From IMG/VR virus record IMGVR_UViG_2562617090_000005: a stretch of 64,000 nucleotides of DNA; one strand, given 5' to 3'. The stretch's first letter is position 1. Each line of letters begins with the position of its first letter. The stretch is from a virus. Its lineage: Duplodnaviria; Caudoviricetes. The notes below the pieces were generated by a model. The model saw only the letters and a list, made by a program, of their open reading frames with translations. It made no database searches and was not told where the DNA came from. The translations under genes were made by a program, and so were the position numbers. Shown piece by piece: positions 3 through 37,946 of the stretch.

Positions 3-707
3 GAGGAACCGGGCAGGGATGACATAAGGCTTGACGATACCACGGATTTGGCCTTTGACCTGGATGAATTTTTCAGGCAGAACAGCGGGGCCTATGCAGA
101 CCTGTACCCGGATTCCCATGCAGAGAAAGAGCGCATGGCGGACGAGCTGCTTTCAGGAGATACCGGAAAAATCCGAATGAGGCTGGCGGCATTTGAGCGC
201 GAGGAACACATGGAGGGAGAAACAGCGCCGCTTTTAGCGCGTATTTCTTCCTATGAAAAAGAGTACGGGATCAGCACTTATTCTATTTATCAGCTTGGCT
301 TATCGGACAATACAGATAACCTCCGTTTTATGTCTCTGGACTGGCTGGAAAGCAAAGGGTTTTCCGTGGATCGGGATCATTACCAGATGGTCTATGCAAG
401 GCAGCGGGAACCGGGCGAAACACTGGAGGATATTTACAGGCGGTTCAATATCGACCACCCGGAAGATTTCAGGGGCCACTCCCTTTCCGTTTCCGATGTG
501 GTGGTCCTGCATGAGAATGGCGCGGACGCCGCATATTACGTGGACAGTATCGGCTTCAAGGAGCTGCCGGGCTTCTTTGACGCAGGGGCACCGGAGGCCA
601 GGCGGGATGTTTCGGTGCGGGAACAGCTTGACAATGCAAGGAAACAGGCAGCGCAGACAGAGCCGAAAGCGCCGGATAAAAGGCCCAGAGAGCCGGAAAG
701 GAGCTGA
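3..707 (+). CDS. YodL-domain protein, 5' partial (frame open to window start)
   Basis: YSIYQL...LEDIYRRFNIDHPEDFRGHSLSVSDVVVL...YYVDSIGF is the YodL signature; no in-frame stop upstream of 48. Confidence 0.8.
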   Translation, partial: EEPGRDDIRLDDTTDLAFDLDEFFRQNSGAYADLYPDSHAEKERMADELLSGDTGKIRMRLAAFEREEHMEGETAPLLARISSYEKEYGISTYSIYQLGLSDNTDNLRFMSLDWLESKGFSVDRDHYQMVYARQREPGETLEDIYRRFNIDHPEDFRGHSLSVSDVVVLHENGADAAYYVDSIGFKELPGFFDAGAPEARRDVSVREQLDNARKQAAQTEPKAPDKRPREPERS

Positions 708-713
708 TAGCTT

Positions 714-1514
714 ATGCTGATGGCAGTAGAAGGTCCCTATGCCCTGATGGTGCAGCCGGACGATATTTTAATCTCTCCCCGTGAGGTAGACGAGCATTTT
801 GGAACGATGGTCTGCTTCCACTCCCGCTACGCACTGGGTGACAGCCACAATTACATGGATAAAGACGATTTCCTGCGGGAGATGTATTTAGATACCGTGG
901 GACATGATGAAGCGGGCCTGAAACGCTATGAACACATGGTGAACATTGTGAGCAGCCGGTTCCGGCACGGGCCCAAGACGGAGGAACAGGCGGTTGATGA
1001 CGCCATGCTGAAGGTGATCTCCGAAAAATACATTACGCTGCCCCTTTATCTGATGGATCACAGCGGCCTTGCCATGCAGACCACAAGTTTCAATGATCCC
1101 TGGGACAGCGGGCAGGTGGGATGGATTTATGTTTCCAAAGAGGATGCCCTAAAAGAGTTCGGCGGCGAAAAAATGACCGGCGCCCTTCGGAAAAAGGCGG
1201 AGGATCTGATGCGCAGCGAAGTGGCCGCTTATGATTCCTACCTGCGGGGCGAGTGCTACGGATTTGAGCTTTACAAAAACGGCGAACTCACGGATAGCTG
1301 CTGGGGCTTTATGGGCGACCTGGCCGATGTCTGTAAAGATATGGCTGAATATCTCCCGGAGGGCTGTAAGAATATGGTGGACCACCTGGAGGAACAGGAT
1401 CACCCGGCGACCATCATCAAGACGCTTTTGAAACATGCGAAAATTCAGGTGAACCAGGCGGCAAAAGCCTTTGAACATACCCCGCGCCAGCAGGTGATCG
1501 GGGACGCTCGTTAA
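714..1514 (+). CDS. conserved hypothetical MGE protein (DHSG...WDSGQVGWIY motif)
   Basis: 266-aa ORF, AAGGAG RBS, co-directional in operon. Confidence 0.7.
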   Translation: MLMAVEGPYALMVQPDDILISPREVDEHFGTMVCFHSRYALGDSHNYMDKDDFLREMYLDTVGHDEAGLKRYEHMVNIVSSRFRHGPKTEEQAVDDAMLKVISEKYITLPLYLMDHSGLAMQTTSFNDPWDSGQVGWIYVSKEDALKEFGGEKMTGALRKKAEDLMRSEVAAYDSYLRGECYGFELYKNGELTDSCWGFMGDLADVCKDMAEYLPEGCKNMVDHLEEQDHPATIIKTLLKHAKIQVNQAAKAFEHTPRQQVIGDAR

Positions 1515-1565
1515 ACAGTTATTTCCTATTTATTATTACAGATTCTATCAGGAAGGAGGATGCAC

Positions 1566-2036
1566 ATGCAGGAAGAATTGGAACAGCGGACCGTTTCGGT
1601 CTCCATCCAGGCGGCAAAGCTGTCCGGGCGGGTGCTGCGTTCTGCGATTGCCGCTGTGCTCAGGAAAATGGAGCAGGAACGCACTACCCCGAAAGTCGGC
1701 AGGAACAGCATGAAACGGCTGACCTATAAAGACCCTGGAGCCAATACCATTGAAGTGTCCGGCAGAATCCGCTCTTTTGAGCGGTACGCCAGGAAACACC
1801 AGGTCCGCTACCATATTGAAAAAGAGCTGGGGACCGATCCCCCGAAATGGACGGTCTATTTCAAAGCAAACCAGGCGGACGCACTGACAGCGGCTTTTAA
1901 GGAATTTACGAGGAAGGATCTTACCCGCAGCACCAGGCCGTCGCTTCTTTCCCAGCTTCATAAATTTAAGGAGCTGGCGCAGGCGCTTGGCCGTGACCGG
2001 GTAAAGAACAAGGAACACGGAGGGCCGGAACGATGA
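1566..2036 (+). CDS. pcfB: PcfB family protein
   Basis: MQEELEQRTVSVSIQAAKLSGRVL...FKANQADALTAAFKEF; typical position before virD4; start placed by GGAGG RBS. Confidence 0.8.
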   Translation: MQEELEQRTVSVSIQAAKLSGRVLRSAIAAVLRKMEQERTTPKVGRNSMKRLTYKDPGANTIEVSGRIRSFERYARKHQVRYHIEKELGTDPPKWTVYFKANQADALTAAFKEFTRKDLTRSTRPSLLSQLHKFKELAQALGRDRVKNKEHGGPER

Positions 2037-2335
2037 AGATAGATACCGATGCCCTGAAAAAGCAGGTGATCCTCCATCTGCCCTATCTTCTGTTCCTTCT
2101 GGTCTTTGCGAAGCTGGGCGAGGCGGTTCGCCTTGCCCCCGGAGCGGATGCCTCACAGAAATTATTAGGGCTTTCCGAAGGTTTCTCACTGGCTTTTCAG
2201 AGTATGTGGCCCGGTGCGGCGCTGGACTGGCTGGTGGGATTATGCGGTGCGGTGATTGTGCGGCTGGCAGTCTATCTTAAAGGAAAGGATGCCAAAAAGT
2301 ACCGCAAAAATGTGGAATACGGGAGCGCCCGCTGG
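2033..2335 (+). pseudogene. virD4: VirD4/TraG coupling protein, 5' fragment (TM anchor), interrupted by the IME
   Basis: Two hydrophobic segments then KKYRKNVEYGSARW; reading ends 2 codons after the TGG junction. Confidence 0.88.
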
Positions 2336-36366: not shown

Positions 36367-36707
36367 AGGCCGGGCATAACAAAAAATCCGTCCGTGTCGA
36401 ATTTGTCATGTCCGAACCGGAGGCCGAACTGGTAAAAGAACGCATGGCGGAACTTGGCATTACCAACCTCTCCGCATATCTGCGCAAGATGGCGGTGGAC
36501 GGTTATATCATCCATCTGGATATGAGCGACATTCAGGAAATGATACGGCTCCTTCGCATTTGCTCCAATAACCTGAACCAGTACACCCGGCGTGCCAATG
36601 AGACCGGCAGTATTTACGCTGCCGACGTGGACGATCTGCGCACACGCCTGGACAGTTTATGGGATGGCATGGATAAGCTGCTGCGGGGATTTGCGAACAT
36701 TTCGTAA
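36363..36707 (+). CDS. mobC: MobC relaxosome protein
   Basis: RHH N-terminus, YLRKMAVDGYI, SNNLNQY. Confidence 0.88.
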   Translation: MKAGHNKKSVRVEFVMSEPEAELVKERMAELGITNLSAYLRKMAVDGYIIHLDMSDIQEMIRLLRICSNNLNQYTRRANETGSIYAADVDDLRTRLDSLWDGMDKLLRGFANIS

Positions 36708-36798
36708 ACAGGAAAAAAACGCCGTTGCTTTCCGGCAACCGGCACGGTAGAATTTTGATAGAGGGACAATATGTTTCTCTTTGAAAGGAGGCGGGCGT

Positions 36799-37089
36799 AT
36801 GCGTCTGATTGGTAAATTACTGGCACTTCCCTTTGTACTGGTTACGGGGATTCTCTATCTGGTGTGTAAATTCCTGGTGGTCGTTTCCGGCGCTGTGCTG
36901 GGGATTCTATCGGGGATCGTATTTCTGGCGGCGCTGGCGCTGTTCTTTGCAGCCGGGTTCTGGCCGGGGCTTTCATGGCTGGTGATCGCGTTCCTGATCA
37001 GCCCCTACGGTCTGCCAATGGCGGCGGCCTGGCTGGTGGGGATCATCGGAGGCGCAAACAGCGCGTTAAAGGATTTCGTATTTGGTTAA
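36799..37089 (+). CDS. small membrane protein (CD1845-like)
   Basis: Hydrophobic; LISPYGLP motif. Confidence 0.7.
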   Translation: MRLIGKLLALPFVLVTGILYLVCKFLVVVSGAVLGILSGIVFLAALALFFAAGFWPGLSWLVIAFLISPYGLPMAAAWLVGIIGGANSALKDFVFG

Positions 37090-37178
37090 ACAGTTTCGGC
37101 GGGGCTCATTGGCAGCCCCGCCCTTTTTCTATAATTATGGCTGTCTGCTATGGCAGCTTTTTGATTGGAGGGATTTGA

Positions 37179-37946
37179 TTGAAAGATACAACGCCAATTT
37201 ATTTTCATTCTGCCACCTATGCGCATGAGCATGGGGAGCTGGATCAGTACCGTGCTTCCCACAAGGCAAACATTGCGTGTAAAGAGGCAATCGAACAGGC
37301 CATTGCGGACAACTACCGGGATAACCGTTTAGGCCCCGCATGTGTGCAGCAGGTCTTACAACAATTTGATCCTGGCCGGATTTTCTATGTCCTTGCCAAC
37401 ACGGTCCGGCAGAAAGAACATGACGGGCGAATTTCCCGTGATAACAAAGCCTGGGCGCAGACAATCCCGGTCTGTGAAGATAAGGACGGTTTCGGATATG
37501 ACAGGAATGTTTCCTTTGTGGTAGACCGTAGCCATCCAGGACTAATGGATTTATTTCTTACCCAAGCCAGAGACATTGCAAAGGAGGATTTCAAGATGAA
37601 TCAAGAGTTTACGAGCCGTAACCAAGTGGAGTTTATACGTCAGACCTACCCACCGAATACCCGGATTTTGTTGCAGCATATGGATGATCCCTATGCCCCG
37701 GTGCCCGCTGGCACCCGTGGAACTGTCAAGTATGTGGATGACATAGGCCAGATTGGGGTTGCCTGGGACAATGGACGCAGCCTTTCACTGATTCCCGGTA
37801 TGGACACATATCGGAAACTGACCCAACAGGAGCTTACTCAGGAACAAGGTGAAAAGCCTTCCATACATGACAGTCTGGGCAAACATGCCGGGCAGCAGGC
37901 GGCTCACAGCGACAAACCGAAAATGAAAAAAGAACAGACACGATAA
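37179..37946 (+). CDS. DUF3849 plus DUF4314 protein
   Basis: ACKEAIEQAI..NY (DUF3849); YPPNTRI...MDDPY...GT.GTV...WDNG.SL (DUF4314). Confidence 0.8.
   Translation: MKDTTPIYFHSATYAHEHGELDQYRASHKANIACKEAIEQAIADNYRDNRLGPACVQQVLQQFDPGRIFYVLANTVRQKEHDGRISRDNKAWAQTIPVCEDKDGFGYDRNVSFVVDRSHPGLMDLFLTQARDIAKEDFKMNQEFTSRNQVEFIRQTYPPNTRILLQHMDDPYAPVPAGTRGTVKYVDDIGQIGVAWDNGRSLSLIPGMDTYRKLTQQELTQEQGEKPSIHDSLGKHAGQQAAHSDKPKMKKEQTR

Follow-up and report, generated by a model that had tools for sequence, protein, structure and literature searches.

A C-terminal tail shared by unrelated soluble proteins of a Tn1549-family conjugative element is a candidate tag for recruitment by the coupling protein

Little is established about which proteins the conjugation machines of Gram-positive bacteria deliver into recipient cells and how these are selected; for Gram-positive systems, a review published in 2025 describes what is known of recruitment as "limited" (PMC12857230). 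The closest described signals come from other systems. The Agrobacterium VirB/VirD4 substrates VirE2, VirE3, VirF and VirD5 carry a positively charged transport signal at their C-termini (Vergunst et al. 2005, as summarised in passages of PMC8406263). The ParA, ParB, SSB and PsiB proteins of the F-like plasmid pED208, among others, are delivered to recipients by a conjugative type IV secretion system (T4SS) in a manner that depends on the type IV coupling protein (T4CP), according to passages of PMC8406263 and PMC11288057. C-terminal determinants read by T4CPs or adaptors are also found in the Legionella Dot/Icm E-block and the Xanthomonas XVIPCD (PMC8740702). Here we describe a C-terminal tail in an integrative and conjugative element (ICE) of the Tn1549 family, the family that predominates among the ICEs of gut Lachnospiraceae and Oscillospiraceae (sections of PMC12084326). 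The element lies in a stretch of 64,000 nucleotides, hereafter the window, from the virus record IMGVR_UViG_2562617090_000005; Pfam and NCBIfam assignments show that the first 39 kb of the window are its conjugation module.

Nine open reading frames (ORFs) on the plus strand of the window encode soluble and otherwise unrelated proteins that share one bipartite C-terminal tail, in which a core, [KR]-P-S-[VLI]-x3-L-K, is followed by about 20 hydrophilic residues, a Lys patch and a C-terminal E-[R/L/I]. The distance from the start of the core to the stop codon is 27-35 residues in these carriers, which are the following:

3..707, plus strand: YodL-domain protein (Pfam PF14191), its ORF starting upstream of the window; core D-V-S-V-x3-L at about 606-629, end ...PERS
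1560..2036, plus strand: PcfB/DUF3801 protein (PF12687), translationally coupled to virD4; tail at about 1935-2033, R-P-S-L-x3-L ... PER
13433..13876, plus strand: ICE-borne SpoVG (Pfam PF04026 covers residues 21-98 only) with an added tail at about 13781-13873
29824..30882, plus strand: DUF5688 protein (Pfam PF18941); variant tail at about 30775-30879, K-G-L-L-x2-L ... PSL
33557..34075, plus strand: protein without known family (no Pfam or NCBIfam match); tail at 33992-34072
34087..34719, plus strand: protein without known family (no Pfam or NCBIfam match); tail at 34633-34716
34733..35665, plus strand: DUF4316 protein (Pfam PF14195); tail at 35576-35662
35665..36366, plus strand: protein without known family (no family name from Pfam or NCBIfam); tail at 36274-36363, K-S-T-L-x3-L ... 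PER
37179..37946, plus strand: DUF3849 and DUF4314 protein (Pfam); tail at 37854-37943

The initial annotation, made from the sequence of the window, had reported these nine tails, and all nine are present in the ORF translations where it placed them. The set is larger than it supposed: two further carriers, LPD1 and LPD34 proteins, are encoded just upstream of the window (G000:C1:1179630-1182501), which brings the number in this ICE to eleven. The ER, AR or TR ending that it described is found in part, the actual end being the broader E-[R/L/I]. Its statement that membrane components of the T4SS, TopB and cargo proteins lack the tail is borne out among the window proteins. The maximum hydropathy of all nine carriers is at most 1.0, as compared with more than 2.1 for five membrane controls (Maff2, TrbL/VirB6, PrgI, CD1107 and DUF5699).

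Some members of the set deserve comment. The YodL protein has the weakest of the canonical tails (rank 21 in the leave-one-out test described below). The Gly-for-Ser variant core of the DUF5688 protein is seen again in other ICEs (loci L081, L090 and L040), and two DUF5688 paralogues of the same genome, at C1:139171-140202 and C1:212750-213667, have no tail. SpoVG provides a natural control, since the chromosomal SpoVG of the same genome is tail-less and the ICE-borne one is tailed; its tail is retained in 120 close homologues, a search that reached close relatives only (86-99% identity) and so shows retention rather than the point of gain. Existing domain models touch the tail in two cases: the PF12687 profile extends into the tail of PcfB, and the PF14195 match in the DUF4316 protein stops at residue 290, on the core motif (residues 282-289). 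NCBIfam supplied no names for the unannotated carriers, and the ESM Atlas returned nothing for the 34087 protein. For the 35665 protein it returned sub-threshold neighbours only (0.84), all from the polyvalent-protein families LPD16, LPD34 and DUF4316, which serves as a lead only.

The resemblance among the tails is neither a chance effect nor a DNA repeat. A hidden Markov model (HMM) of the tail, run against the 4.58 Mb genome (20,527 ORF segments), matches only these carrier ORFs, and when tails were held out from the model, they ranked 1, 1, 1, 1, 3, 8, 12, 21, 21 and 114 of 20,517. Iterating this HMM over-fitted it to five relaxase-proximal families, so that clear PcfB tails were missed, and a family-neutral detector calibrated on the whole genome was used instead. 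It found tails in 10 of 216 ORFs within the ICE versus 28 of 20,311 outside. The comparison of ICE and chromosomal proteins with a tail HMM, proposed in the initial annotation as a check, gives enrichment, and the motif is not equally common elsewhere. Nucleotide identity of the tails among carriers is only 52-72%, with synonymous codons differing throughout the core, and no direct-repeat family covers the tails. Because synonymous codons vary both in the core and at the terminal Arg, selection appears to act at the level of the protein.

The last two codons show a peculiar usage. Of the distinct tails, 51% encode the terminal Arg with CGA, a rare codon that accounts for 4.8% of the Arg codons in the remainder of these genes, and the penultimate Glu is encoded by GAA in 84% versus a background of 50% (examples in the window are 2028-2033, 34067-34072, 34711-34716 and 36358-36363). 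The stop codons of tail ORFs, moreover, abut or overlap the ribosome-binding site or start of the next gene. Both observations speak for the tail as an element of stability or expression, i.e., a C-terminal degron limiting the level of the carriers in the donor or a by-product of translational coupling. We regard this as very unlikely. The core lies 80-100 nucleotides upstream of the stop codon, beyond the reach of ribosome-binding-site effects, and the terminal Arg is kept through synonymous changes, also where the next gene is 33 nucleotides away (DUF3849) or where there is none (relaxases of mobilisable elements, see below). We know of no Gram-positive degron with ends like those of the tails. 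A ribosome-binding-site artefact as the sole cause of the terminal E-R was rejected on the same grounds, the Arg being kept through synonymous changes and without a close downstream gene. Family descent and adjacent ribosome-binding sites account for the codon bias only in part; the bias could stem from the common origin of a tail module that was shuffled among genes, or from selection acting on termination and translational coupling.

The architecture of the tail was derived from 60 non-redundant tails of this and related elements, anchored on the core; positions 1, 3, 4 and 8 were imposed by the detector and the others were not. The core has K or R at position 1, Pro at 2 (55%), Ser at 3 (83%, otherwise Thr or Gly), V, L or I at 4, Arg at 5 (45%), Leu at 8 (85%), Lys at 9 (48%) and K or R at 12. 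It begins 26-42 residues before the stop codon, with a median of 30. K, E, A, R, Q and P predominate in the spacer, where Lys accounts for 17% and Arg for 10% and aromatic residues are nearly absent; the spacer leads to a Lys patch at positions -8 to -5. Glu occupies position -2 in 61% of the tails, and the last residue is R in 63%, L in 20% and I in 10% (93% together). The mean net charge is +4.5.

Structure models agree with a flexible appendage. In the AlphaFold2 model of the 33557 protein, the protein core has a predicted local distance difference test score (pLDDT) of about 90 and the predicted template modelling score is 0.74, whereas the tail has a pLDDT below 50, and its sole structure is a helix at residues 149-154, directly after K146-P147-S148. 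In the model of PcfB, a helix at 129-149 starts after Pro127-Ser128, and the last 9 residues are without secondary structure and of low confidence. These models suggest that Pro-Ser would act as a helix N-cap, with two aliphatic residues four positions apart displayed on one face. A fold search with the PcfB and 33557 protein cores gave no PDB match at E <= 0.001.

The tail thus resembles the Agrobacterium signal, as that signal is described in parts of PMC8406263, in occupying about 30 residues at the extreme C-terminus of unrelated soluble proteins of one transfer system and in being hydrophilic, unstructured and net positive. It differs in that its basic residues are mostly Lys, as seen in the spacer, so that the Arg pattern of the Agrobacterium signal is absent, and in having the conserved Pro-Ser-capped amphipathic core and the E-[R/L/I] end, neither of which is part of the Agrobacterium consensus. 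The ICE tail also belongs to a Gram-positive system with a T4CP of the CD1115 type. The Legionella E-block is acidic and without a capped helix, unlike the basic ICE tail, and the XVIPCD is a folded domain of about 120 residues, unlike a disordered tail of about 30.

A net positive, Lys-rich tail could also bind nucleic acid, or a partner other than the T4CP, such as the transferred single strand, the relaxase or MobC, the carriers then riding with the DNA or acting on it; several carriers are indeed DNA-related (SpoVG, an ArdA fusion and relaxases). A non-specific basic tail, however, would have no need of a Glu conserved at -2 or of a helix capped by Pro-Ser and conserved at a constant distance from the end, and strict C-terminal placement is typical of recognition that involves the free end. 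We consider such binding quite unlikely.

Related elements carry the tail as well. We gathered 80 related loci from many genera using the tail-less ICE relaxase as the seed. Three rounds of HMM search matched 241 ORFs in them, all on the relaxase strand and all at the C-terminus with 0 internal matches, and the family-neutral detector found tails in 260 of 2247 ORFs on the relaxase strand versus 1 of 2975 on the opposite strand. A profile of 38 tails, run against 1.84 billion proteins, gave 19 significant matches, each ending at the last or second-to-last residue of the protein. In Tn1549 itself the carriers are PcfB, a 1306-residue YodL-domain polyvalent protein, with a single core 31 residues from its end, and the next protein. 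Strict cores far from a protein end are nearly all an unrelated Toprim motif of TopB: the N-terminal sequence A-E-K-P-S-V-A... of TopB (window 30920-33043) and its homologues fits the core regular expression, and therefore a census of the motif must leave TopB out.

The proteins preceding the tails belong to many families: YodL, LPD1, LPD34, LPD28, DUF3801, SpoVG, DUF4316, DUF3849/DUF4314, an ArdA-DUF3849 fusion, DUF3848, DUF3560, DUF5688 and several without a family. Polyvalent-protein domains are present in the LPD1, LPD34, YodL, LPD28 and ArdA-fusion carriers and absent from PcfB, SpoVG and the three unannotated carriers. For the LPD, YodL and ArdA families, sections of Iyer et al. 2017 (PMC5512222) predict delivery together with the incoming DNA or action right after its entry, and parts of PMC12084326 likewise predict that carrier families act early in the recipient. 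The fusion, found at locus L077 (8010-9131), joins the ArdA anti-restriction domain to DUF3849 with the tail kept, which ties the DUF3849 carriers to counter-restriction. The plasmid-encoded maintenance and anti-defence proteins delivered in F-like transfer parallel this candidate ICE set; passages of PMC8406263 describe no shared linear signal for substrates of the pED208 type, whereas the ICE candidates share one recognisable tag.

Since many carriers are solo versions of polyvalent-protein domains, the tails might be functionless linker leftovers of polyvalent proteins broken into single-domain genes. This is hardly credible, because internal copies would then be expected and, besides the TopB Toprim motif, in only 3 distinct relaxase-strand contexts is a strict core separated from the end by more than 45 residues, two of the three being hydrophobic and unlike a tail. 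Apart from these contexts, internal copies are absent from the 80 loci, and a linker-remnant origin was rejected. The Tn1549 polyvalent protein has the motif solely at its end, and the tail is conserved over the 80 loci also on SpoVG, PcfB and relaxases, which are not polyvalent. The elements and the families YodL, LPD1, LPD28, LPD34 and ArdA are those treated, as polyvalent proteins and solo domains of Tn1549-like elements, in the sections of PMC5512222 considered here; the tail extends beyond that set to PcfB, SpoVG and relaxases of mobilisable elements.

The backbone gene set and order of the module are those of the Tn1549 family and agree with the annotated Tn1549 on Enterococcus faecalis pMG2200. 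The first part encodes PcfB/DUF3801, a CD1115-type VirD4, Maff2, a VirB6-like protein, SpoVG, MT-A70, PrgI and VirB4; the middle part an M23/NlpC peptidase, DUF4315, CD1107, a SpaA-sortase protein, a ThyX-like protein, dUTPase and YpsA; and the last part DUF5688, TopB, a Cys-rich VLP protein, the small-gene block, NikA/MobC, DUF5699, DUF3849 and a MOBP relaxase. The mobC and relaxase genes are co-oriented with the backbone, which corresponds to the "B-type" layout in the part of PMC12084326 that defines it. The coupling protein belongs to the CD1115 family (NCBIfam equivalog NF045973, conju_CD1115; 532 bits versus a cutoff of 250), and its gene is present in two parts, listed here with the gene of the relaxosome accessory protein:

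2033..2335, plus strand: N-terminal fragment of VirD4, CD1115 family, the candidate receptor (tblastn with an intact homologue places its residues 28-104 at 2108-2335)
10510..12063, plus strand: C-terminal soluble part of VirD4, without tail (Pfam; NF045973; homologue residues 101-609 at this site)
36363..36707, plus strand: NikA/MobC relaxosome accessory protein, without tail (Pfam)

The split, between 2033-2335 and 10510-12063, is due to an integrative mobilisable element (IME) of about 8.2 kb that encodes a serine recombinase, VanZ, DUF3847, a MobA/MobL relaxase and a DUF3991-Toprim-AAA_25 protein. While the IME is integrated, the presumed tail receptor is thus interrupted. Just upstream of the left part of the ICE (locus L001, 5639-10155), the opposite strand carries genes for a Mob_Pre relaxase, an AAA_25 protein and an ArsP-type permease, which may be another small mobilisable element or cargo. 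The genome contains two more T4CP genes, G000:C1:125892-127154 and C1:3054406-3055638 (39% and 35% identical), which belong to other conjugative elements.

The occurrence of the tail follows the clade of the coupling protein. Sixty T4CP genes were sampled from 400 genomes of the class, with 20 kb around each (10 kb per side). Near T4CPs 63-80% identical to that of the ICE, 10 of 1216 ORFs carry the tail, and it is kept in 20 of 20 PcfB homologues. Near those of 42-56% identity the count, 2 of 1189, is at background level, the core being confined to a PcfB-like protein with a longer Lys-rich spacer; near those of 29-39% identity it is 0 of 1105. The PcfB-like proteins of the middle band (loci L144-L163) have 200-395 residues, with a K-P-S-V core 46-61 residues from the end, a long Lys-rich stretch and the end K-x-R, and all matches within 10 kb of these T4CPs are PcfB homologues, the sole exception being an unclassified ORF of L158 that immediately precedes the T4CP gene. 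The two other T4CP loci of the host genome have no tail-bearing ORFs nearby. The pcfB gene overlaps the start of virD4. The gradient suggests that the tail is ancestral in PcfB and later spread to accessory proteins within the Tn1549 family. Plasmid searches with PcfB found Tn1549-bearing enterococcal plasmids and did not find model plasmids of the pCF10 type.

The special position of PcfB can be interpreted in another way. The tail may serve within the donor alone, where it would bring proteins to the coupling protein or the relaxosome for assembly or regulation; it might gate the T4CP, for instance, or gather DNA-processing and accessory factors at the channel, and the carriers would not be exported. 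PcfB is a backbone protein whose gene is translationally coupled to virD4, it is tailed in every locus of the 63-80% band, it is the lone carrier seen in sister elements, and neither SpoVG-type nor DUF3801 proteins have an obvious role in the recipient. Against this, a role in the recipient is predicted for the families of many carriers, namely the ArdA fusion and those with LPD domains (sections of PMC5512222), and the accessory carrier genes are variable and non-backbone (parts of PMC12084326), which is unusual for machine assembly factors. We consider a role limited to the donor unlikely, yet it is the alternative with the most to recommend it.

Relaxases form the class of proteins that T4CPs are known to recruit, and two of them are encoded in the window:

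6174..7889, plus strand: IME MobA/MobL relaxase (Pfam PF03389); degenerate in-register tail at about 7806-7886, R-K-C-V-x3-L-K, 27 residues from the end, end QEQER
37979..39388, plus strand: ICE MOBP relaxase (Pfam PF03432), without canonical tail; look-alike end at about 39311-39385, [KR]-A-N-V-x2-L-L, ...SRQ

The initial annotation had noticed that the IME relaxase ends in RQEQER and proposed that it may mimic the tail. The ...QEQER end is there, and so is a degenerate core in register with it; several MobA/MobL homologues in other genomes have the complete bipartite tail, so that the proposed mimicry can be argued more strongly, from these sequences, than was then possible. The IME encodes no coupling protein, and its relaxase must therefore be recruited by the T4CP of a helper. 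IME relaxases with a full tail that depend on a foreign T4CP constitute, in our view, the strongest indirect argument for a coupling protein that reads the tail. The MOBP relaxases of ICEs (in the window and in L013-L092; 80 loci) have a conserved [KR]-A-N-V-[ED]-[HY]-L-L about 25 residues before the stop codon and a conserved ...SRQ, separated by a hydrophilic spacer that varies. This end resembles the tail in layout, with Asn where the tail has Ser, and may be a cognate variant of the tail or merely the end of a coiled coil.

From the motif, its position, distribution and disorder, and the kinds of proteins that carry it, we infer both a receptor and export. It seems somewhat probable, on the comparisons above, that the tail is a docking or translocation tag for the ICE coupling protein. 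The wider proposal, that it is a portable label read by CD1115-type coupling proteins, ancestral in PcfB and later captured by more than 15 accessory families, polyvalent proteins and relaxases of parasitic IMEs, is more tentative, falling a little short of an even chance. The disordered C-terminal appendage of soluble ICE proteins would be a short linear recognition element, beginning with a Pro-Ser N-capped helix that displays two aliphatic residues and continuing with the basic flexible spacer and the E-[R/L/I] end. It would dock its carriers onto the CD1115-type VirD4 of Tn1549-family elements, and in most cases the docked carriers would be T4SS substrates moved into the recipient, where anti-restriction and establishment functions could act before the incoming DNA is expressed. 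The tail would be ancestral in PcfB, and relaxases of mobilisable elements without a T4CP of their own would have gained it later, as would no fewer than 15 accessory families unrelated to one another. The T4SS export signal suggested in the initial annotation is supported in part: it fits the in-silico features, i.e., the C-terminal, disordered and net-positive tail, the soluble carriers, the families predicted to act in recipients, the single T4CP clade and the IME relaxases.

Several observations weigh against recognition by the coupling protein followed by export. PcfB and the YodL protein are, individually, only weakly similar to the other tails, as is evident from their leave-one-out ranks of 114 and 21. 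The CGA and GAA bias suggests that the nucleotide sequence is under some constraint or that the tail module has a common origin. The ICE's own relaxase has no canonical core. The terminal residue classes, R versus L or I, are mixed inside single elements, and thus no specificity code is visible. PcfB, a conserved backbone protein, is tailed in sister elements that have no other carriers within 10 kb, which leaves room for donor-side docking or assembly without export. Finally, the mean net charge of the last 30 residues of the T4CP is -1.9 in the tail-bearing band, -5.3 in the middle band and -4.4 in the distant one; an acidic T4CP end does not co-vary with the tails and indicates no receptor site, and the acidic C-terminus of the T4CP was dropped as a candidate receptor for this reason.

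Targeted term look-ups brought up no mention of a targeting signal or shared C-terminal tail in the passages they reached in PMC5512222, and none of a shared tail in those of the Faecalibacterium ICE survey (PMC12084326). Literature searches on DUF4316, on PcfB with pCF10 and on a Tn1549 translocation signal, and the T4SS reviews consulted, yielded no description of the tail. A tag that marks candidate substrates would make recruitment in Gram-positive conjugation directly testable, would provide a list of candidate anti-defence and establishment factors, and could account for the way in which mobilisable elements make use of a host ICE. If the tail is indeed such a tag, every protein that the commonest ICE family of gut Firmicutes injects during conjugation could be recognised directly from sequence, and the compatibility between IMEs and ICEs would be set partly by the tag.

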